From the NCBI GenBank assembly GCA_023229825.1, contig JALNYN010000005.1:1933-65932 (forward strand): a DNA stretch of 64,000 nt. The letters are read 5' to 3'. The translations under genes were made by a program, and so were the position numbers. The DNA comes from Minisyncoccota bacterium. Lineage in GTDB: Bacteria; Patescibacteriota; Minisyncoccia; Phycocordibacterales; CAIJYI01. Every line of letters begins with the position of its first letter. The first letter of the stretch is position 1. Positions 6,170 through 58,146 of the stretch are shown here, piece by piece. The notes beneath the pieces were generated by a model. The model worked only from the letters and a program-made list of their open reading frames with translations. It had not been told where the DNA came from and ran no database searches.

Positions 6170-7501
6170 ATGGAAAATCAAAAAGTTACGATGGATAAGA
6201 TCGAATCCCTCGCAAAACGGCGCGGTTTCATTTATCGCGGATCAGAGATCTACGGCGGACTTGCCGGGACATGGGACTACGGACCGCTCGGCGTCGCGCT
6301 CAAAAAGAATATCAAAGACCTGTGGTGGAAACGTTTCGTCGAAGATAGAAGCGATATGTACGGCGTGGACGCGGCAATACTGATGAGTTCAAAAGTATGG
6401 GAAGCGGCAGGACACGTGGCGACATTTACCGACCCGATGGTGGAATGTGAAAAATGCAAAAAAAGGTTTCGCGCGGATCATCTTTCTCCAGACGGGAAAA
6501 CGGATTTTTCTTGGGTATGTTCGGAATGCGGACATTCCAATGGGCTTTTTGAACCTCGCCAATTCAACATGATGTTCAAGACATCCATCGGGGCGGTGGA
6601 GGATTCTTCTTCGATCGCGTATCTTCGACCGGAAACGGCGCAGGGGATGTTTGTGAATTTCAAAAACGTCGTCGATTCTTTTCATCCTCGATTGCCGTTT
6701 GGCATGGGACAGATCGGCAAAGCGTTCCGCAACGAAATTACCCCGCGCGATTTCGTGTTCCGCACTCGCGAGTTCGAGCAGATGGAGATAGAGTATTTTG
6801 TTAAACCGTCCGAATGGGAAGAACATTTCGAACTCTGGCGGAAAGAAATGCATCAGTGGATGGAAGATATCGGATTGCGAAAAGAAAATATCCACGAACT
6901 TGAAGTTGCAGACGAAGATCTGGCTCACTATTCGAAGCGTACGATAGACTTTGAATTTGATTTTCCGTTCGGTAAAAAAGAATTGTACGGTCTGGCGTAT
7001 CGCACTGATTTTGATCTGACAAGCCACCAAAAAGAAAGCACCGTTTCGTTGGAATATATCGACGAAGCGGAAAAAACAAAATACATCCCGCACGTGGTCG
7101 AGCCGACCTTCGGACTGGATAGAACGATCCTTGCCGTACTCTGTACCTCATACCACGAAGAAGATGTGGAAGGAGAAACGCGCGCCGTTTTACGCCTCCC
7201 GAAACAACTCGCCCCGATCAAAGTTGCGATCTTGCCGCTTTCCAAAAAAGAAGAACTTTCCGCCGTGGCGCGTCCGATCTTCGATACGCTGAAAAAAGAT
7301 TTTGTTGTTTCGTACGACGAAACGCAATCCATCGGCAAGCGTTATCGCCGTCAGGATGAGATCGGTACGCCGTATTGCATCACCGTCGATTTTGAAACTC
7401 TGAACGACAAAGCCGTAACCGTCCGCGACCGCGATACGATGAAACAGGAGAGGATAGCGATCGAAAAACTGCCTGAGTATTTGAAAGAGAAATTCCAATA
7501 A
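6170..7501 (+). CDS. glyQS: glycine--tRNA ligase (dimeric class II GlyQS type)
   Basis: IYGGLAGTWDYGPLG, zinc-ribbon insertion CEKCKKRF...CSECGH, class II motifs, C-terminal anticodon-binding domain; likely start at MENQK. Confidence 0.9.
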   Translation: MENQKVTMDKIESLAKRRGFIYRGSEIYGGLAGTWDYGPLGVALKKNIKDLWWKRFVEDRSDMYGVDAAILMSSKVWEAAGHVATFTDPMVECEKCKKRFRADHLSPDGKTDFSWVCSECGHSNGLFEPRQFNMMFKTSIGAVEDSSSIAYLRPETAQGMFVNFKNVVDSFHPRLPFGMGQIGKAFRNEITPRDFVFRTREFEQMEIEYFVKPSEWEEHFELWRKEMHQWMEDIGLRKENIHELEVADEDLAHYSKRTIDFEFDFPFGKKELYGLAYRTDFDLTSHQKESTVSLEYIDEAEKTKYIPHVVEPTFGLDRTILAVLCTSYHEEDVEGETRAVLRLPKQLAPIKVAILPLSKKEELSAVARPIFDTLKKDFVVSYDETQSIGKRYRRQDEIGTPYCITVDFETLNDKAVTVRDRDTMKQERIAIEKLPEYLKEKFQ

Positions 7502-7507
7502 AAAGTA

Positions 7508-7546
7508 AACGACCACCGGACCTGAGTCCGGTGGTCGTTTACATTT
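7508..7546 (+). terminator. hairpin terminator downstream of glyQS
   Basis: aaacgaccaccgg/ccggtggtcgttt 13-bp stem followed by T-rich tract. Confidence 0.55.
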
Positions 7547-7615
7547 TACTTATAGCTCGCCTATCGCACCCGATCGATCTATACCTCTCACACTTTTGTT
7601 TCAAAAAACACACAA

Positions 7616-8102
7616 GGCAAATTCTAGCATATGCCGCCTAGCCGGATTAATTTGGTTGATAATCGCTCGGACCATAGACCATTTTTCATCCAGTTTTATC
7701 CAAAACAAAAACGAGTATCGCCGGACGGGGTTTGTAACCCCGTCCGAAACGTTTGGCGATCTTGATCGAGTCTGTGCTTCAAATTAACCATAAACGAAGC
7801 CTCCAAATGTTTCGGACAGGGGTATCCCGCTCGCAAGCGGGACCCCGCACGCTGCGGTGGCAACCCCAGTCCGGCGACGGGGCTGTGATCGGATCATATT
7901 TTCATTCGTATACAGATATTCATATATTATTTTTGCGATCAAAATTGCTGATTTCAACTTCGCAACATGACAATTCTCATGTATTTTTTTCATACACGCG
8001 AATTGTGTCAAAAAACGTCAAAAAAGGCTTGCGCTATCGAACTAAAACTACGATAGCACCAACCAAGTTAACGCGGCTATCACGCATATGCTAGAATTTG
8101 CC
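7616..8102. mobile_element. MITE-like non-coding element bounded by 19-bp perfect terminal inverted repeats (ggcaaattctagcatatgc)
   Basis: Left end ggcaaattctagcatatgc and right end gcatatgctagaatttgcc are exact reverse complements; interior has no credible ORF and carries a family-A structured repeat. Confidence 0.55.
7719..7882. repeat. family-A palindromic repeat, copy 1 (inside the TIR element)
   Basis: ccggacggggtttgtaaccccgtccgaaacgtttgg ... ccaaatgtttcggacagggg ... caaccccagtccggcgacgggg; nested hairpins; related copies at 19.2 kb and 31.8 kb. Confidence 0.55.
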
Positions 8103-8154
8103 TACAAAGTGAGAAATAGAAAATTATTTTACAATTAAAAATTTTTTATTTTTT

Positions 8155-8194
8155 TTACAAAAAATCGCCGCGGTCCGAAGACTGCGGCGATAAC
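8155..8194. terminator. bidirectional hairpin terminator (3' of PhoH2 gene)
   Basis: atcgccgcggtc-cgaag-actgcggcgat stem-loop flanked by T/A tracts on both sides. Confidence 0.55.
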
Positions 8195-8231
8195 TTTTTT
8201 CGATAGTGAATATCAATTTTTATGATATTGA

Positions 8232-9635
8232 TCACCAATTATTGGCGACGAATTCAGCAAGTTCGCTTCTTTCGCAGCCGACGAGCGTCACATGAGCGCA
8301 TCTCTGGCCGATCTTCGAGGATTCTACCGCATGGGTAAGTCCGCATGATTCGGCGGAAAGATACTGAGATGCAATTTGCCGGACATTTCCGAGAAAGACG
8401 AATTTCGTTCCCGGACCGGCGCGCGTGCCCAAGTCGAGCGCTTGTTTTGGCGTTAAATTTTCCGCTTCATCAACGACAACGAACTTTCTGTGGAATGTTC
8501 TGCCCTGCATCGGTCCAATGGAACGCATTTTGACGTAGCGCTTCATTAGATCCTGTGCCGTTTGTTTATGTGCAGCATCGATGCCTGATGTCAAAAAATC
8601 AAGGTTGTCGGTAAATGCCATAAGCCATGGAGCCATTTTCTGCTCTTCGTTGCCCGGAAAGGTCCCAGGGTCGATACCGATCGGCATGATCTCTTTGGTA
8701 ATAGTAATCTCGTTGTAGAGACGCCAGTCAATTACCTGCTCCAGTGCGGCAGCAAGAGTGAGGAGTGTTTTTCCCGACCCGGCTTTTCCGGCCCCGGAAA
8801 CGAAATGAATTTCAGGGTTCATGAGGGCATTCATAAAGAAGTTCTGCTCTTTATTGAGTGCATGAAGTCCCCAAACATTCTTATCTTTCGTATAATCATA
8901 AATAGTGCTGATGGTTGCGTAGCCTTCATAGTCGAGTTTGCGAACCATGAATTCTTGAATTCCTTCCTCTGTGATCAGGGTAAGAAATTGATTCGGAAAC
9001 CATGCGTTGGAAAGAGTGGTTTTTATATCCCAATACGTGAGTCCGTTCTCTTCTTTTTCGCTGAGCTTTTTGGTTTTTTTCCAAAAATTTTCCGGCAGAT
9101 CCGCCATTCCGCTGTAGAGAAAGTTGATATCGTCGATCGCTTTGGCTCTGGCGTACTCTTCCACTTTGACACCGCACATGAGCGCGGTGATCCGCGCGAT
9201 GCTATCTTGCGTTATGAAAATAACGTCAACGCTTTCCCCGAGTTTTTTTTGTAGTTCGCTCGCAAAATTTATGATGGGTGCATCGGGATTGAGCGGCATG
9301 AGCAGCAAGCTGGCATGACTTGATTCAAAAAATACGCGTCCGGTTTTTGAAGAAGGACCTTTTTTTCCGTAATAGGAAATAGCTTTGGATATCGGAAGTC
9401 CTTTTTCCAGATCGTCGGGACTGGCGCCGCGAAGAAGTTCGGAAAAATATTTGGTGGTGTGCCGAGCATTTTTTGCAAGTTCCGGTTTTCGGATATTGGT
9501 CTTATGATTATCCAGTTCGCGCATAACGGCGATAGGGACATAAATGTCATGCTCGTCGAAATTAAAAAGCGCGGCGGGATCATTCCCATAAATGCAGGTA
9601 TCCAGTACGAATACCGTTTCTTTTGTTCGCTTCAC
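8232..9635 (-). CDS. PhoH2-type protein (N-terminal PIN domain fused to PhoH-like ATPase)
   Basis: PIN-like VFVLDTCIY...D residues N-terminally; Walker A GAGKAGSGKT, Walker B VVVDEAEN; probable GTG start preceded by GGAGG (ORF track extends to 9689). Confidence 0.8.
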   Translation of the reverse strand: MKRTKETVFVLDTCIYGNDPAALFNFDEHDIYVPIAVMRELDNHKTNIRKPELAKNARHTTKYFSELLRGASPDDLEKGLPISKAISYYGKKGPSSKTGRVFFESSHASLLLMPLNPDAPIINFASELQKKLGESVDVIFITQDSIARITALMCGVKVEEYARAKAIDDINFLYSGMADLPENFWKKTKKLSEKEENGLTYWDIKTTLSNAWFPNQFLTLITEEGIQEFMVRKLDYEGYATISTIYDYTKDKNVWGLHALNKEQNFFMNALMNPEIHFVSGAGKAGSGKTLLTLAAALEQVIDWRLYNEITITKEIMPIGIDPGTFPGNEEQKMAPWLMAFTDNLDFLTSGIDAAHKQTAQDLMKRYVKMRSIGPMQGRTFHRKFVVVDEAENLTPKQALDLGTRAGPGTKFVFLGNVRQIASQYLSAESCGLTHAVESSKIGQRCAHVTLVGCERSELAEFVANNW

Positions 9636-9769
9636 GGGGCATCCTCCTTTTTGTGGTTTAGGGTGGTCAATAATTGATGAACTTTTCAAGGTTCAATATG
9701 ATGTCATCTACTATAAAACTACCGCATTAGCGAGTTAGCGTCAATGACGAATCTTGGCACATTTAACCG

Positions 9770-16862: not shown

Positions 16863-16895
16863 CAGCGGTGGCGGAAAGCCGCCGCTTTTTTTGAA
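16863..16895 (+). terminator. rho-independent terminator after the oxidoreductase operon
   Basis: agcggtggcggaaagccgccgct stem-loop + ttttttt. Confidence 0.75.
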
Positions 16896-16916: not shown

Positions 16917-16954
16917 CGCCCTGCTGTAAATTCTAGCATATGCTAGAATTTACA
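16917..16954. repeat. 38-bp perfect palindrome ctgctgtaaattctagcatatgctagaatttacagcag
   Basis: Exact reverse-complement symmetry; the two halves equal the TIRs of the 7616-8102 element joined head-to-head. Confidence 0.6.
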
Positions 16955-16993
16955 GCAGGCATTTTTTTTATTTTATGTGCTATAATATCGGCT

Positions 16994-19217: not shown

Positions 19218-19325
19218 CGTTGCCCGACGGGGTTTGTAACCCCGTTGGAACGTTTGGAAATAACGATGAATGTGGTTTATTACAAACGTTTCGAACGGGG
19301 TCAGAGACCCGCGTCCGGCGGCTAT
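19218..19325. repeat. family-A palindromic repeat, copy 2 (intergenic)
   Basis: cccgacggggtttgtaaccccgttggaacgtttgg ... caaacgtttcgaacggggtcagagacccgcgtccggcgg. Confidence 0.55.
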
Positions 19326-19367: not shown

Positions 19368-20051
19368 ATGGTAAAAATAATTAAAACATTGCGCATCACG
19401 GCATGGATCTTGATCGCGCTCACGGCGCTGACCTTGCTTTCCGGATTTTTGTCGGTGAAACCATCGGCGCTTCCGTGGCTTCCAAAAGTGGATTCGTATT
19501 ATCTGCATGTCGTCGTATTGCCGCTTCTTTTTGTACCCATTATCTATCTTCATTCGCTCATGGGAATTTTGCTGTTCTTCTCTCGGAATCCGAAGTACGA
19601 TAAGGTACCGCTGAAATCCGCGGCGGCCGGTTTGTGGACGGCGCTTTTTATTCTTTTCGGTTTCTTATACTTTGTTCCAGCTGCCGTTCCGGAAGCGGTA
19701 AACTCGCCCGCTGCATCCGCACAAACCACTCTTGCCGCCGCAGAGATCGCCCGTCACAGTACCGCAAGCGATTGCTGGATAATTATCGGAGGTAAAGTCT
19801 ATGATGTCTCGGGGTACGCGACAGAGCATCCGGGTGGAGCGCAGAATATCGAATCGTTTTGCGGCAAAGATGGGACAGAGGCATTTGCTACGAAAGGGGA
19901 AAAAGGACAGCCTCACTCAGACAGTGCGCAGCAATTCCTGTCATCGATGTATCTCGGCGATATGGGATCGAACATCTCAAAAAGCGTTCTCGAAAAAGCT
20001 CGGTCTGTTCAGTTTCCGGTACAAAGTGAGGATGAGGGAGATGATGATTAA
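19368..20051 (+). CDS. membrane protein with C-terminal cytochrome b5-like heme-binding domain
   Basis: Three N-terminal TM helices; DCWIIIGGKVYDVSGYATEHPGG contains the classic HPGG heme-ligand motif. Confidence 0.65.
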   Translation: MVKIIKTLRITAWILIALTALTLLSGFLSVKPSALPWLPKVDSYYLHVVVLPLLFVPIIYLHSLMGILLFFSRNPKYDKVPLKSAAAGLWTALFILFGFLYFVPAAVPEAVNSPAASAQTTLAAAEIARHSTASDCWIIIGGKVYDVSGYATEHPGGAQNIESFCGKDGTEAFATKGEKGQPHSDSAQQFLSSMYLGDMGSNISKSVLEKARSVQFPVQSEDEGDDD

Positions 20052-26350: not shown

Positions 26351-26400
26351 CGTCATCCCCCCACCGTCATTCCGGACCGCGATCCGGAATCCACGTCCGT
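26351..26400. repeat. family-B REP unit (singlet), copy 1
   Basis: gtcattccggaccgcgatccggaatccacgtc. Confidence 0.55.
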
Positions 26401-26405
26401 CGGCG

Positions 26406-31562: not shown

Positions 31563-33212
31563 GTGGAAAATCTTGAGCAAAAACGACGAGTTTTGAAACG
31601 ACTGCGCGAATGGAGAGATGCGGAGGCTAAACGCATGGGCCTTGATTTTTTTCGCGTGCTTTCCAACGATGCGGTAAATGGCATCGCGGAAACTTTGCCG
31701 ACGACGAAAGAAGCGCTTTTGGAAGTGAAAGGGATCGCCGAGAAAAAATGGCAGACGTACGGGAGGGATATTCTTGCCATTGTGGCGGAAGAAACGACGC
31801 AAGGACTTTTTGCGACGGATGCCGTCGCCGGACGGGGGTTGTACCCCCGTTCGAAACGTTTGGATGAAAGCACGGAAGAAACAATAACCAAAACATCCGA
31901 ACAGGGGTACAACCCCAGTCCGGCGGACGGAAATTATGACGAAACTGAAAACGATGGCTCCCGCGATGGCTATCGACAATCCGGCGAAAAGGTCTTTACT
32001 GTTGCCGACTACTTGGAAATTCTTAATACCGGACTCCGGCAGTTTGAAGCGAAAGTCATTGGCGAGATCACCAGTTTGGATATTCGCGACAAATATATTT
32101 TTTTCAGCATCAAAGATAAAAAGGACAACGCGATGATGTCGTGTTTCATGTGGGGCTCGTCGTATAAAATGAGCGGAATTTTACTGGAAGAAGGAATGGA
32201 AGTGGCGGTGCATGGTTTTCCCGAAATGTACAAGCCGAGCGGACGCATGACGTTCCGCGCCGACAGCGTGGAATTGGTAGGCGAAGGCGCGCTTAAAAAA
32301 GCATACGATGAACTGAAAAAGAAACTTGAAAAGGAAGGGCTGTTTTTGGAGAGCAGAAAAAAACCGATCCCCGAATATCCTCAAAATATCGGGCTGATAA
32401 CATCAGAAACCGGCGCGGTCATTCACGACTTTTTGAATAACATCGGAAAATTCGGTTTCAAAATATCATTCCGCGATTCGCGCGTGGAAGGCGCGCTGGC
32501 GGTGAAAGAATTGGTGAGTGCTGTGAAATATTTTAAAAAACAAAAATCTATTGATGTATTAGTTTTGATCCGCGGAGGCGGTTCGCTCGAATCCTTGCAG
32601 GCGTTCAACAATGAAGCGCTGGTGCGCGAAATTGCCGATTGCCCGTTTCCCGTGCTGGTCGGCATCGGACACGACAAAGATGTGCCGCTCGTTTCGCTTG
32701 TTGCAGACAGAGCCGGCTCAACACCGACGGCCGTCGCCAAACTGCTTAATTCGACGTGGGAGCAAGCGCTGGCGAAGGTACGGCTTCACGAACAAAAAAT
32801 TTTGAATCGTTTTTCAGAAGCATTATATGAGAAAAAAGATAATTTGCGCGATCGTTCGGAACACATCGAAAAAAAATTCCGCATGATCTTTGAGAGATTT
32901 CGAAACGCGGAAGAAAAAATAAAAAGAAATTTCGTCGCTATCGGAAGCGCCATGGCGCGTGCAAAAGAACGGCTCGATCACTCGCAGAAAACATTAAAAG
33001 AAAAATTAACTGATGACATTCGGCGCTCTAAAGAAAAGATCATATACATCGAAAAAATGCTTGTCGCGAATAACCCCATGCGCCAGCTGAAACTCGGATA
33101 TTCGCTCGCTCTTTCAAAAGGCAAGGTGGTAAGAAAGATAGAAGATGTTGCGAGCGGCGATGAAGTTGATATCAGGGTAGAAAATGGGACGATTAAAACA
33201 AAAGTGGAATAA
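31563..33212 (+). CDS. xseA: exodeoxyribonuclease VII large subunit with N-terminal HRDC-like domain and repeat-derived linker
   Basis: FTVADYLEILNTGL... OB-fold N-terminus and catalytic core (IRGGGS, GIGHDKD); residues 1-70 HRDC-like; residues ~75-140 encoded by family-A repeat; GTG start. Confidence 0.8.
   Translation: MENLEQKRRVLKRLREWRDAEAKRMGLDFFRVLSNDAVNGIAETLPTTKEALLEVKGIAEKKWQTYGRDILAIVAEETTQGLFATDAVAGRGLYPRSKRLDESTEETITKTSEQGYNPSPADGNYDETENDGSRDGYRQSGEKVFTVADYLEILNTGLRQFEAKVIGEITSLDIRDKYIFFSIKDKKDNAMMSCFMWGSSYKMSGILLEEGMEVAVHGFPEMYKPSGRMTFRADSVELVGEGALKKAYDELKKKLEKEGLFLESRKKPIPEYPQNIGLITSETGAVIHDFLNNIGKFGFKISFRDSRVEGALAVKELVSAVKYFKKQKSIDVLVLIRGGGSLESLQAFNNEALVREIADCPFPVLVGIGHDKDVPLVSLVADRAGSTPTAVAKLLNSTWEQALAKVRLHEQKILNRFSEALYEKKDNLRDRSEHIEKKFRMIFERFRNAEEKIKRNFVAIGSAMARAKERLDHSQKTLKEKLTDDIRRSKEKIIYIEKMLVANNPMRQLKLGYSLALSKGKVVRKIEDVASGDEVDIRVENGTIKTKVE
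31824..31932. repeat. family-A palindromic repeat, copy 3 (inside xseA reading frame)
   Basis: cgccggacgggggttgtacccccgttcgaaacgtttgg ... ccgaacaggggtacaaccccagtccggcggacgg. Confidence 0.55.
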
Positions 33213-33224
33213 AACAATCCTTCG

Positions 33225-33330
33225 TCGTCATTCCGGCCCACGAGCCGGAATCCACGTCCGTCGAAAACGTGGATCCCGGGTCCATCCTTCGCAAAGGCTT
33301 CGGCATGGCGCAGCGTTGCCCGGGATGACG
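33225..33330. repeat. family-B REPIN-like element, copy 3 (long subtype with 35-bp insertion)
   Basis: cgtcattccggcccacgagccggaatccacgtc ... ggatcccgggtccatccttcgcaaaggcttcggcatggcgcagcgttgcccgggatgac. Confidence 0.55.
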
Positions 33331-38392: not shown

Positions 38393-38546
38393 CTTAACCA
38401 ATGCAACCGACGTCAACATTACAAAAAATATCCCACCGAAAATTTCAGACAAACGGCACCCGGTTTTTTCCGCGCGACACTTTCATATGCAAAAAGAAAC
38501 GTTACAACACGCGTTTATCAAAACAATGGTGCCTGTCCCCATTTTC
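38393..38546. repeat. ~160-bp direct repeat unit H, copy 1 (ends in family-C REP-like hairpin)
   Basis: ttaaccaatgcaaccgac...ttccgcgcgacactttcatatgcaaaaagaaacgttacaacacgcgtttatcaaaacaatggtgcctgtccccatttt; near-identical at 40160-40333, degenerate at 40814-40979. Confidence 0.6.
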
Positions 38547-40166: not shown

Positions 40167-40333
40167 AACGTGAGAAAATTTTAACCAATGCAACCGACAG
40201 TAACATTACAAAAAACATCCAACAGAAAATTTCAGACAAACGGCGTCCGATTTTTTCCGCGCGACACTTTTATATGCAAAAAGAAACGTTACAACACGCG
40301 TTTATCAAAACAATGGTGCCTGTCCCCATTTTC
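40160..40333. repeat. direct repeat unit H, copy 2
   Basis: Starts within the last codons of paralog 2 and runs through a second copy of the MQKETLQHAFIKTMVPVPIF start and REP-C hairpin. Confidence 0.6.
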
Positions 40334-40820: not shown

Positions 40821-40979
40821 ACCGTGAGAAAATTTTAACCAATGGAACCACCAACCGGATTACAAAAAATATCCCACCGAAAATTTCAGATAAACAGCTG
40901 CCAAGTTTTTCCGCGCAGCCCCTTCACCATAAGCAAAAAAACACCTCAACACATATTTTGAAAAGAATGGGTGCCTGGA
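40814..40979. repeat. direct repeat unit H, copy 3 (degenerate; ends in degenerate family-C motif agaatgggtgcctgga)
   Basis: gggaagtaaaccgtgagaaaattttaaccaatggaacc... aligns with copies 1 and 2. Confidence 0.5.
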
Positions 40980-41060
40980 TTTATTCAACCTTGAACTGCA
41001 ACAGTCGTCGTTGATGGTCGATAGCGCGCCGAACTTAACGAACACAGAAGAAAAGTTCGA

Positions 41061-49027: not shown

Positions 49028-49102
49028 TCGTCATTCCGGACTTGATCCGGAATCCACGTCCGGCGGTATGGCGTGGATCCCGGGTCCCGGCCCGGGATGA
49101 CG
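49028..49102. repeat. family-B REPIN-like element, copy 4
   Basis: gtcattccggacttgatccggaatccacgtc ... cgtggatcccgggtcccggcccgggatgac. Confidence 0.6.
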
Positions 49103-55428: not shown

Positions 55429-55454
55429 TAAAACACGCATTCACAAAAAAACTC

Positions 55455-55567
55455 GTCGTCATTCCGGACAGCGATCCGGAATCCACGTCAGTGGAACTAT
55501 TAACGTGGATCCCGGATCCATCCTTCGCCAAAGGCTACGGCATGGCGCAGCGCGGTCCGGGATGACG
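55455..55567. repeat. family-B REPIN-like element, copy 8 (long subtype)
   Basis: cgtcattccggacagcgatccggaatccacgtc ... cgtggatcccggatccatccttcgccaaaggctacggcatggcgcagcgcggtccgggatgacg. Confidence 0.6.
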
Positions 55568-55674: not shown

Positions 55675-58146
55675 ATGACAGAAACAGGATTGAGAAAAAA
55701 ACGGCTCAAAATTAAGATACAGGGCACCGTACAAGGCGTCGGATTCCGACCTTTTGTGTTGCGGCTTGCTGAGAAACTGGGTGTTTTAGGCTGGGTTATT
55801 AACGGCGTTCGAGGCGTTGAGATCGCTGCAGAGGCGGATGTGATAGACCTTCTTGAATTTGCCCGGTGCGTTGTAGATCATGCTCCCGAAGTGGCGGCGA
55901 TCGATTTCGTGGAATATTCGTATCTCGACGATACGGAAAAATATGAAAAATTCGAAATTCGCGAAAGCGACAATTTTGGAGAAAAAACAGCCTTGGTGCT
56001 TCCCGACTTGGCAACATGTCCGGAGTGCCAAAGCGAAATATTCGACAGAAAAAATCGGCGCTTTCGGTATCCGTTCACGAACTGCACCAACTGCGGTCCG
56101 CGACATTCAATTATCGAACGGGTCCCGTATGATCGCCCGAATACATCGATGAAAGTTTTTCCGATGTGTCCGGAATGCGAGAAAGAATACAACGATCCTG
56201 CGAATCGCAGGTTCTATGCACAGCCGAACGCATGCCCAGTTTGCGGTCCGCATTTGGTACTGCTGGATCAAAATGGAAAAGATCTCGCAACTCGAGATAG
56301 TGCGCTTCGTATGGCAGAAGAATATATTGATTACGGAAAAGTCGTCGCCTTAAAAGGGCTTGGCGGTTTTCAATTGATAGTCGATGCCATTAATCCGATC
56401 GCGATCAAAAAGTTGCGCGAGAGAAAGGGACGGCCAGGACAAAAACCGTTTGCGGTTATGTATCCGAACATTGAACTGGTAAAAGCGCATTGCGAAGTTT
56501 CGATGGAAGAAGAAAAACTTCTTTTGTCCCGACAATCGCCGATCGTGCTTTTAAAGAGGAAGGACCGTCCTTCCGAAGTTGAGAAAGTTCCACATAAAGA
56601 TATCGCTCCCGATAGCAACGTTCTCGGCGTGATGCTTCCATACACTCCGCTTCATCATCTATTGATGGCGGATCTCGGTTTTCCGATCGTTGCCACGAGC
56701 GGCAACTTGTCGGACGAGCCTATCATTACGGATGAGGATGAGGCGGTCGTATTGCTTGGACATATTGCGGACGCTTTTCTCGTTCATAATCGCGGTATCG
56801 TTCGTCACGTTGACGATTCGATCGCGAGAGTGATAAACGGGAAGACTGTCATCTTGAGAAGGGCGCGGGGATACGCTCCGATGCCTATAAAAGTCGAAAG
56901 TCGAAAGTCCCTGCTTCGCCAAGGCTATGCAGGGCAAGCACCAGTCGAAAGTACGCCGACGATCGTGGCTTTTGGTCCAGATCTGAAAAATGTGGGGGCG
57001 GTTCTCACCGATGGCAAAGTCTATTTGACACAGCACATCGGCGATATGGGAACCACAGCTTCCGGGGACGCACTTTTGAGATCGATCAACGACACGCTCG
57101 CTTTTCGGGAGAAAAAACCGGAGGCGGTTGTCTGCGATCTGCATCCCGATTACGCATCGACAAGAATGGCGGAAGCGTTTGCCGAGGAACATCACATTCC
57201 TCTCTATCGCGTCCAGCATCACAAAGCGCATATTTTATCCGCAATGACTGAAAATGACATTGTAGGAAAAACAGCGCTCGGTGTGGCTTGGGACGGTACG
57301 GGATACGGCGAAGACGGCACGATCTGGGGCGGAGAATTTTTCCGCGTCAGCGAAACCGGCCTCACGCGCTACGCGCATTTGCGCACTTTCGGTTTGATCG
57401 GCGGCGACAAAGCCGCACGTGAGCCGAGATACTCCGCAGCCGCGATCCTTTATGAGATCTACGGAAAAGAAATTTTCGATTCCGACAGATTCGCATCGGT
57501 GAAAGCGCTGATTGGCGTTGAAAGGAAACTCTTTCCTCAAATGCTGAAAAACAAAATGAACGTCGTTATGACATCCAGTGCCGGAAGATTGTTCGATGCC
57601 GTCGCTTCGATCCTAGATATTTGCCACTCGTCCGATTATGAAGGGCATGCGGCGATACTTTTGGAACAGGCGATCGGCGATGAAACGACCAATGAAAATT
57701 ATGAGATATCCGTCGTAAAAGATGGGGATGAATATATATTTAATTGGGAACCGATGATCCGCGACATCGTATATGAATACGAGTTGGGAATTCGTCCGGG
57801 CGTTATTGCGAAAAAAATTCACAATACGCTCGCGAGGGTGATCGCTCGAATTTTTCTCGTTTCAGGAGAAGGACGGCTTGTTCTTTCCGGCGGATGTTTT
57901 CAAAATAAATATCTGTTGGAAACAACGATAAAAAAACTTGAGGGATATTCGGACGACGGCAGAATATTCACTCAAGGCAAGGTGCCGATGAATGACGGAG
58001 GCATTGCTCTCGGTCAGATCACGGCGGTGTTAGATTCCGTCCGTCATTCCGGACTTGATCCGGAATCCACGTCGGAAACGTTAAATATAGATTCCGGGTC
58101 CATCCTCCGCCAAGGCTACGGCATGGCGCGGCGTTGCCCGGAATGA
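55675..58146 (+). CDS. hypF: [NiFe]-hydrogenase maturation carbamoyltransferase HypF
   Basis: Acylphosphatase domain (IQGTVQGVGFRPFV), two CxxC-x18-CxxC zinc fingers, YrdC and Kae1-like domains; last ~35 codons lie in a family-B repeat. Confidence 0.9.
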   Translation: MTETGLRKKRLKIKIQGTVQGVGFRPFVLRLAEKLGVLGWVINGVRGVEIAAEADVIDLLEFARCVVDHAPEVAAIDFVEYSYLDDTEKYEKFEIRESDNFGEKTALVLPDLATCPECQSEIFDRKNRRFRYPFTNCTNCGPRHSIIERVPYDRPNTSMKVFPMCPECEKEYNDPANRRFYAQPNACPVCGPHLVLLDQNGKDLATRDSALRMAEEYIDYGKVVALKGLGGFQLIVDAINPIAIKKLRERKGRPGQKPFAVMYPNIELVKAHCEVSMEEEKLLLSRQSPIVLLKRKDRPSEVEKVPHKDIAPDSNVLGVMLPYTPLHHLLMADLGFPIVATSGNLSDEPIITDEDEAVVLLGHIADAFLVHNRGIVRHVDDSIARVINGKTVILRRARGYAPMPIKVESRKSLLRQGYAGQAPVESTPTIVAFGPDLKNVGAVLTDGKVYLTQHIGDMGTTASGDALLRSINDTLAFREKKPEAVVCDLHPDYASTRMAEAFAEEHHIPLYRVQHHKAHILSAMTENDIVGKTALGVAWDGTGYGEDGTIWGGEFFRVSETGLTRYAHLRTFGLIGGDKAAREPRYSAAAILYEIYGKEIFDSDRFASVKALIGVERKLFPQMLKNKMNVVMTSSAGRLFDAVASILDICHSSDYEGHAAILLEQAIGDETTNENYEISVVKDGDEYIFNWEPMIRDIVYEYELGIRPGVIAKKIHNTLARVIARIFLVSGEGRLVLSGGCFQNKYLLETTIKKLEGYSDDGRIFTQGKVPMNDGGIALGQITAVLDSVRHSGLDPESTSETLNIDSGSILRQGYGMARRCPE

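Follow-up and report, generated by a model that had tools for sequence, protein, structure and literature searches.

What is the stretch of DNA that lies between the perfect inverted repeats at positions 7616 to 8102 of contig JALNYN010000005.1 from a Minisyncoccota bacterium, counted along the 64,000-nucleotide (nt) portion analyzed here (the window)? A sequence-only reading had described it as a 487-bp noncoding element resembling a MITE (a miniature transposable element bounded by inverted repeats), with 19-bp terminal inverted repeats (TIRs) and a structured core that might represent a small RNA gene. Our analysis indicates that the element proper is shorter, extending from 7635 to 8083 (449 bp), and that it is very probably a MITE in the strict sense, that is, an internally deleted and transposase-less derivative of a ~1.1-kb insertion sequence (IS) of the IS256 family, inserted in the center of a palindrome. 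The MITE-like character therefore stands, as this is a nonautonomous IS derivative with relatives present in multiple copies at different loci, but the boundaries and the anatomy originally given were wrong.

The 19-mer GGCAAATTCTAGCATATGC at positions 7616 to 7634 (plus strand) is the exact reverse complement of positions 8084 to 8102, as previously noticed, and the chance expectation for such an inverted pair is 0.01 matches. One further pair (A7615/T8103) brings the complementarity to 20 nt, and an imperfect match (84%) continues out to 44 nt. The only other site in the window with the 19-mer sequence, at positions 16920 to 16959, is an unsplit 40-bp perfect palindrome (cctgctgtaaattctagcat joined to atgctagaatttacagcagg) followed by a T-run. 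The 8-mer GCATATGC appears just three times in the window (7627, 8084, and 16936), and because both ends of the 7.6-to-8.1-kb region carry it, this region can be read as the palindrome opened at its center by an insert of ~450 bp, its middle 8 bp being now present twice. The apparently perfect 19-nt inverted repeat arises because the target and the duplicated 8-mer are both palindromic.

The true ends were located in other copies of the element that were found without reference to the palindrome; the fetched loci are designated here by L numbers. One of them, with a transposase 81% identical (L122), sits at a nonpalindromic site between direct 8-bp repeats of ACACATAC, and its ends are exactly GTAATAGCC... 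and ...GGCTAGGTC. A genome collection was scanned with the inner repeat TAGCCGSRTTAAYTTGGTTG, and one metagenome-assembled genome (MAG), CAYPFT01, labelled as uncultured Candidatus Saccharibacteria, was found to contain nine copies (L125 to L133; eight complete and one partial) of an identical 223-bp sister MITE with these same ends, which suggests a very recent amplification, and the DNA pattern used did not recover a full-length IS from this MAG. The 8-bp direct repeats of the complete copies were GCATATGC in six cases, GCACGTGC in one (L132), and GCATATAC in one (L130). GCATATAC, which is not palindromic, reads in one and the same direction at either side, which makes the 8-mer a target-site duplication (TSD) and not a part of the inverted repeat. 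Most targets in CAYPFT01 are palindromic, with different arms and only the central 8-mer in common. Direct repeats of 8 bp also surround the copy in L119, and two distant relatives (L120 and L121, ~41 to 42% identity) are likewise found within palindromes, with duplications of ~8 bp. The MITE is thus a multicopy element with an 8-bp TSD and a preference for the center of palindromes with the consensus RCAYRTRC. The perfect 19-bp TIR that had been attributed to the transposon itself consists of 11 nt of target arm plus the 8-bp TSD GCATATGC, and other copies are flanked differently.

The full-length parent was recovered from L061, L064, and L119. It measures ~1.10 kb, shares both ends, and has one open reading frame (ORF), of 326 amino acids (aa), and it is found in Paceibacterota and other bacteria of the candidate phyla radiation (CPR). 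Its transposase is of the IS256 type. The 326-aa protein matches the Pfam family PF00872 (Transposase_mut) with 23.0 bits (gathering threshold of 21; E value of 4.4e-5), 17 of 22 homologues match the same family, and the best NCBIfam matches are IS256_Zn_var and transpos_IS256. Residues D107, D171, E285, and C190/H193 are invariant in the 22 homologues, together with the cysteines of an N-terminal CC..CxxC zinc finger; judging by their position, D107, D171, and E285 would be the putative DDE catalytic triad, with the CxxH motif placed after the second D and ahead of the E. The AlphaFold model of the protein (mean predicted local distance difference test score [pLDDT] of 87.9) retrieved chains of the ISCth4 transposase as the top five Foldseek matches in the PDB (E value of 1.4e-8, probability of 1.0, and template modeling [TM] score of 0.51), and Hermes (hAT) ranked next, far behind. 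The family is small, with 45 proteins at an E value of ≤1e-5 in 5.8 billion sequences, nearly all of them on contigs of 1.1 to 1.8 kb and none named. The left and right inverted repeats (IRL and IRR) of the full-length element, CACTTAGCCGGATTAATTTGGTTGAT and GTAATAGCCGGATTAATTTGGTTGAT, differ only in their first 5 nt. Other mobile elements that we considered (IS200/IS605, IS110 with its bridge RNA, and group II introns) were ruled out by the DDE transposase of IS256 type and the 8-bp TSDs. A further IS copy, with a transposase 69% identical, lies in L117 (3001 to 5220) within the variant palindrome half-site GCAAATTTCAGCATATGC and is followed at its 3' end by a different transposase gene (DDE_Tnp_1/DUF4372), forming a small mobile-element cluster in a 144-kb Paceibacterota contig.

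The anatomy of the window element can be described by comparison with this parent, with which it aligns only at 7635 to 7696 and 7961 to 8083. At the left, the arm of the pre-existing target palindrome (A-GGCAAATTCTA, 7615 to 7626) is host DNA; it recurs in unsplit palindromes, including the one at 16920 to 16959, and is missing from L122 and L132. It is followed by the left TSD copy (7627 to 7634), which corresponds to the palindrome center, and by the IRL (CGCCTAGCCGGATTAATTTGGTTGAT, 7635 to 7660, plus strand), which has no mismatches to the inner inverted-repeat pattern and is homologous to the IRL of L061, L119, L122, and the CAYPFT01 MITEs. The IRL and what is left of the transposase gene's 3' end make up the left-end segment of the IS (7635 to 7696, minus strand; 79% identity by blastn to positions 1430 to 1341 of L061). 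The middle is occupied by a nested palindromic module belonging to a repeat family that we call family A (7718 to 7878; described below) and by an AT-rich spacer (7881 to 7960) that is particular to this MITE variant, being common to the MITEs of L060 and L081 but not found in the full-length IS of L061. The right-end segment of the IS (7961 to 8083, minus strand; 86% identity by blastn to positions 430 to 291 of L061) retains the IRR, the 5' untranslated region of the transposase gene, its start codon (ATG at 7993 to 7991, minus strand), and the first ~12 to 15 codons (MKKIHENCHVAK...); the corresponding N terminus, MKKIHAKS.CC, is conserved across the transposase family. The IRR (GTGATAGCCGCGTTAACTTGGTTGGT, 8058 to 8083, minus strand) has four mismatches to the inner pattern and is homologous to the full-length IRR. 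The right TSD copy (8084 to 8091) and, next to it, the palindrome's right-hand arm (TAGAATTTGCC-T, 8092 to 8103), recognized by palindrome comparison, complete the site. The real inverted repeats are therefore imperfect and ~26 bp long. As had been stated before, the interior lacks a plausible ORF; the two mechanical ORFs within the element, of 113 aa (plus strand) and 75 aa (minus strand), gave no Pfam matches. There is a single MITE copy in the window, but the same variant with identical junctions is present in L060, L081, and L102 (the latter 97.5% identical to the window MITE over 121 nt), and as the flanks differ, this variant has itself spread.

To evaluate the abundance of the target, public metagenome contigs were scanned with the 18-mer GYAAATTCTAGCATATGC. 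A repeat limited to this site and to the one at 16.9 kb would have spoken against the sequence-only reading; the motif was found in more than 113 related metagenome contigs, mostly from sample JGI 3300014208. Unsplit palindromes were found at no fewer than 72 sites in the window and related contigs, with arms perfectly complementary over 12 to 62 nt (most often 19 to 23 nt), an inner part of ~14 nt that is conserved, and an outer part that is copy specific. Among the matches listed, all 65 distinct copies are intergenic, with none in long ORFs and with every gene orientation represented, and 25 of the 65 are followed by a T-run. Related Paceibacterota carry this palindrome in abundance as an intergenic repeat. 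In addition, at least 23 sites showed split ends, in which what comes after the 18-mer is homologous to the left or right interior of the window element; many of them lie ~100 to 125 nt from the contig end, the usual mark of a multicopy repeat that breaks assemblies. We also considered TGCTAGAAT as a simple promoter pair or operator, an idea made secondary by the split arrangement and the homology to the IS, and the palindrome arms as a mimic of the inverted repeats (IR targeting, as both share TAG and AATTTG), although the similarity is short and was not seen in L120 and L121. The unsplit copy at 16920 to 16959 comes right after another terminator-like hairpin (16864 to 16886) and is located ~40 nt upstream of the next gene start.

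Three other explanations have to be weighed against an IS256-type MITE inserted in a palindrome. If the interior were a small structured RNA gene or a cis-regulatory RNA, with the flanking repeats incidental, its nested GC-rich hairpins would be the functional part. The hairpins cited in the sequence-only reading are present (7726 to 7740 and 7819 to 7845), the region from 7710 to 7890 folds strongly (−86.9 kcal/mol; z score of −5.8), and one compensatory variant of a small hairpin appears across copies (GGGGTTTGTAACCCC versus GGGGGTTGTACCCCC). However, the reverse strand folds equally well (z score of −5.7), as a DNA palindrome would, for which reason the noncoding RNA idea was dropped. The Rfam scan that had been proposed as a check was run over 7400 to 8300 and gave no family at the gathering threshold; at an E value of ≤10, the matches overlapping 7616 to 8102 reached only 16 to 18 bits (E values of 3 to 7.5), far under the gathering scores. 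Elsewhere, the loops of the module vary from copy to copy, a number of copies consist of one arm alone, and one copy is embedded in frame in a coding region. Moreover, since the module has independent copies elsewhere and neither the full-length IS nor the 223-bp MITEs contain it, it is a second, independent repeat family nested in the MITE and not an RNA gene specific to it, and we regard the RNA explanation as extremely unlikely.

The other two explanations concern the palindromes. The original anatomy would be right if the 19-mers were the TIRs of a 487-bp MITE and the unsplit palindromes were TIR-TIR miniatures or internal-deletion products. The 19-mers are indeed perfect, the same sequence is found at the ends of many related copies, and recombination between the two copies of GCATATGC would collapse the element into a palindrome like the one at 16.9 kb. 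Nevertheless, L122 and L132 contain nearly identical elements that have no 11-nt arm and stand between 8-bp direct repeats of other sequence, the 8-mer of L130 is repeated directly and not inverted, otherwise identical IS ends stand beside different palindrome variants (GC versus GT, and other outer arms) with the variation starting exactly outside the 8-mer, and no direct repeat of 8 to 9 bp surrounds the 19-mers in the window, so that this anatomy is almost certainly wrong. Alternatively, the palindromes might be products of the element (excision footprints or decayed back-to-back ends) and not independent targets. A few near-palindromes with 3 to 6 extra central bases that equal the IRL tip do look like this and may be marks left behind when the element was lost imprecisely, namely, those of L111 at ~273 (GCATATGC-CAC-TAGAATTT), L049, and L093 at ~2717 (GCATATGCCACTTAAATTT). 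But intact palindromes far outnumber the ends in the same scan (at least 141 half-sites versus at least 23 ends), excision could not create outer arms that are copy specific and perfectly complementary, and the CAYPFT01 MITEs lie in palindromes of different sequence that have the central 8-mer alone in common. Copy-out/paste-in elements, furthermore, do not excise (PMC7780238). A general origin of the palindromes from the element is, accordingly, very unlikely.

Several observations weigh against an IS256-type MITE inserted in a palindrome at this site. A tblastn search found no transposase gene in the 64-kb window, so that an autonomous partner, if this genome has one, would lie outside it. 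The 326-aa transposase scores 28.6 and 30.1 bits against NF033543 and NF048019, while the NCBIfam cutoffs are 150; as these scores are far under the cutoffs, we take it to belong to a divergent clade. A sequence-profile search of the PDB with the transposase gave nothing, and the link to ISCth4 came only through structure prediction and fold search. The subterminal TGTAAA motif noted for IS256 members (PMC7780238) is missing from both ends of the IS. The complementarity of the window palindrome ends at 16 nt per arm, with unmatched outer flanks, unlike most intact copies, which could be due to a short target or to a later rearrangement between copies. The flanks of L061 are not complementary either, which could have come about by chimeric joining at the repeat during assembly or by copies recombining with each other. 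Finally, the search for related and empty sites that had been proposed was successful only in part: the motif was found in the many contigs mentioned above, but no orthologous empty site (glyS-palindrome-phoH2) was found among the loci examined. The glyS loci of the closest relatives (L001 to L003, 83 to 90% aa identity) are not syntenic downstream and have neither the motif nor family A, and among the matches listed, no contig of the fetched loci combines the window flanks with an unsplit palindrome. As for the flanks themselves, the left outer flank in the window (aaaaaacacacaag) resembles the "cacacaat" subfamily of palindrome arms (L028, L072, L086, and L109), and the right one (ctacaaagtgag) is unlike that subfamily (7615 to 7626 compared with 8092 to 8115); a rearrangement between element copies at this site is possible.

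Family A is a long imperfect palindrome. Its arms measure ~38 nt (TCGCCGGACGGGGTTTGTAACCCCGTCCGAAACGTTTGG) and include one small GGGG..CCCC hairpin each, and the loop that joins them varies from copy to copy. The structured core had been taken as part of the element or as a small RNA gene, and it is instead one member of this family, of which we counted 13 distinct copies in 880 kb (the window plus the fetched loci). The copy nested in the MITE carries in its right arm an extra insert of 36 nt (7825 to 7860; TCCCGCTCGCAAGCGGGACCCCGCACGCTGCGGTGG) with two small hairpins (TCCCGCTCGCAAGCGGGA and CCCCGCACGCTGCGGTGG), found only in this copy: those of L060 read GGGGTACAACCCC, and the insert is also missing at 31825 to 31925. 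This last module, one of the two independent copies in the window, is located in frame inside a 549-aa ORF (31563 to 33212) whose frame stays open through it, in the linker between the HRDC domain and the OB-fold/exonuclease VII large-subunit domains. The repeat could be tolerated in coding sequence or could even fuse it, reminiscent of the Rickettsia palindromic elements. The other independent copy (19220 to 19325) is intergenic; it closely follows a TTGACA box and precedes by ~45 nt a gene starting at 19368. Relative to the other two copies in the window, it has degenerate arms.

The MITE inserted at the center of a pre-existing intergenic palindrome, GGCAAATTCTAGCATATGCTAGAATTTGCC, with a staggered-cut duplication of the central 8 bp (GCATATGC). 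Regarding the transposition chemistry, mobilization in trans, and any regulatory effect, we infer the following. By analogy with the IS256 family, the transposase would bind the conserved inner part of the inverted repeats. The hallmarks described for IS256 and ISCth4 include an 8-bp TSD, TIRs whose left and right versions diverge chiefly close to the tips, a C/DxxH motif, and copy-out/paste-in transposition (PMC7780238), and on this model the element would be copied out as a double-stranded circle with abutted ends and integrated with an 8-bp stagger. The MITE, in which the unrelated family-A repeat and the spacer have taken the place of the transposase body, retains what would be the transposase-binding ends and could be mobilized in trans, but only if a full-length copy located elsewhere supplied the enzyme.

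The sequence of the junctions also hints at promoters. With a 6-bp spacer, an IRL-IRR junction would give TTAATC-17-TAATAG, a plausible junction promoter. At each junction with the target, insertion sets the inverted-repeat motif TTAAYN 18 bp upstream of TGcTAGAAT in the target, and in a consensus promoter scan, only the right junction scored as promoter-like. There, TTAACG in the IRR (8068 to 8073) is separated by 18 bp from TAGAAT, with a preceding TG that forms an extended −10 box, pointing outward; this is a consensus match only, and an outward promoter-like site might be a side effect of the insertion. A more ambitious and rather doubtful proposal is that the ~28-bp core GYAAATTCTAGCATATGCTAGAATTTRC is a previously undescribed functional repeat of Paceibacterota, similar to repetitive extragenic palindromic (REP) sequences and located at hairpin apexes with copy-specific stems, that this small IS256 clade has come to recognize the central 8-mer RCAYRTRC by its sequence and uses the repeat as a safe harbor, and that each insertion creates two outward hybrid promoters (TTAAYN-18-TGcTAGAAT) firing into the neighboring terminators.

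IS256-family elements measure 1.2 to 1.5 kb and encode transposases of ~400 aa (ISfinder). Their TIRs are imperfect and ~24 to 40 bp long, and their TSDs measure 8 to 9 bp. Like IS256 of Staphylococcus and ISCth4 of Clostridium thermocellum, the latter of 1,503 bp (PMC7780238), the parent IS has a single ORF for a Mutator/IS256-type DDE transposase with an alpha-helical insertion domain carrying the C/DxxH motif, 8-bp TSDs, and imperfect TIRs that differ mainly near the tips. It differs from them in its smaller size (~1.10 kb and 326 aa), its N-terminal CC..CxxC zinc finger, its high divergence, and the lack of TGTAAA. In addition, IS256 and ISCth4 favor loosely AT-rich targets (PMC7780238), whereas the parent IS strongly prefers an 8-mer of the form GC-A-Y-R-T-GC in the middle of palindromes. 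The window element resembles the IS-derived MITEs of other bacteria (MITEAba12, the Correia elements, and the MITEs of Coxiella and Cardinium) in being short, noncoding, multicopy, and mostly intergenic, with both inverted repeats kept and the TSD of the parent. In this case, however, the parent could be recovered and is an IS256-type IS, the window copy has gained an unrelated internal palindromic repeat, and the perfect TIR is an artifact of the palindromic target. REP sequences and bacterial interspersed mosaic elements (BIMEs) are abundant, strictly intergenic short palindromes, classically with a REP-associated tyrosine transposase (RAYT), and some IS target them: IS1397 and ISKpn1 insert in REP/BIME loops, and elements of the IS110/IS1111 family target REP-like sequences. 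Insertion at the center of an abundant intergenic palindrome, sparing genes, is shared with these systems, but here the transposase is an IS256-type DDE enzyme and not of the IS3 or DEDD kind, an 8-bp TSD is made, and the target has a conserved core of ~28 bp with copy-specific outer arms.

The element is a mobile-element relic of a well-known kind, with nothing categorically new, and leaves the understanding of transposition unchanged. Its value is descriptive and for annotation. The explanation of a striking perfect TIR as an artifact of insertion in a palindrome calls for caution in MITE annotation. The data also document an unnamed element of the IS256 type that looks active, along with its MITEs, in CPR/Paceibacterota, whose highly reduced genomes have mobile elements that are little described; in our searches of the literature, neither this element nor the palindrome turned up. 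The marked preference for the center of a single conserved intergenic palindrome is not usual among IS256-family elements and points to an abundant repeat in these genomes.

As the sequence-only reading had indicated, the repeat-bounded stretch lies between the terminators of two genes, glyS (6170 to 7501) and a PIN-PhoH gene (phoH2; 8232 to 9689, minus strand), which are convergent. The glyS product is 100% identical to the GlyRS annotated in a Candidatus Paceibacterota MAG, and the product of the second gene contains the Pfam domains PIN_4 and PhoH. The bidirectional terminator-like hairpins are found at 7505 to 7542 after glyS and at 8164 to 8191 after the PIN-PhoH gene. Other repeats are dispersed in the window. 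Hairpin repeats of the form GTCATTCCGGA..TCCGGAATCCACGTC are present in at least seven copies (26361 to 26404, 33222 to 33265, 49029 to 49060, 55453 to 55496, 58042 to 58073, and others) and are often paired with a second repeat of 65 nt (33265, 55502, and 58083). A direct repeat of 153 nt occurs three times within 2.6 kb, overlapping ORFs, at 38394 to 38546, 40181 to 40333, and 40835 to 40987 (93% and 62% identity to the reference copy), and may represent either paralogous gene starts or a repeat.

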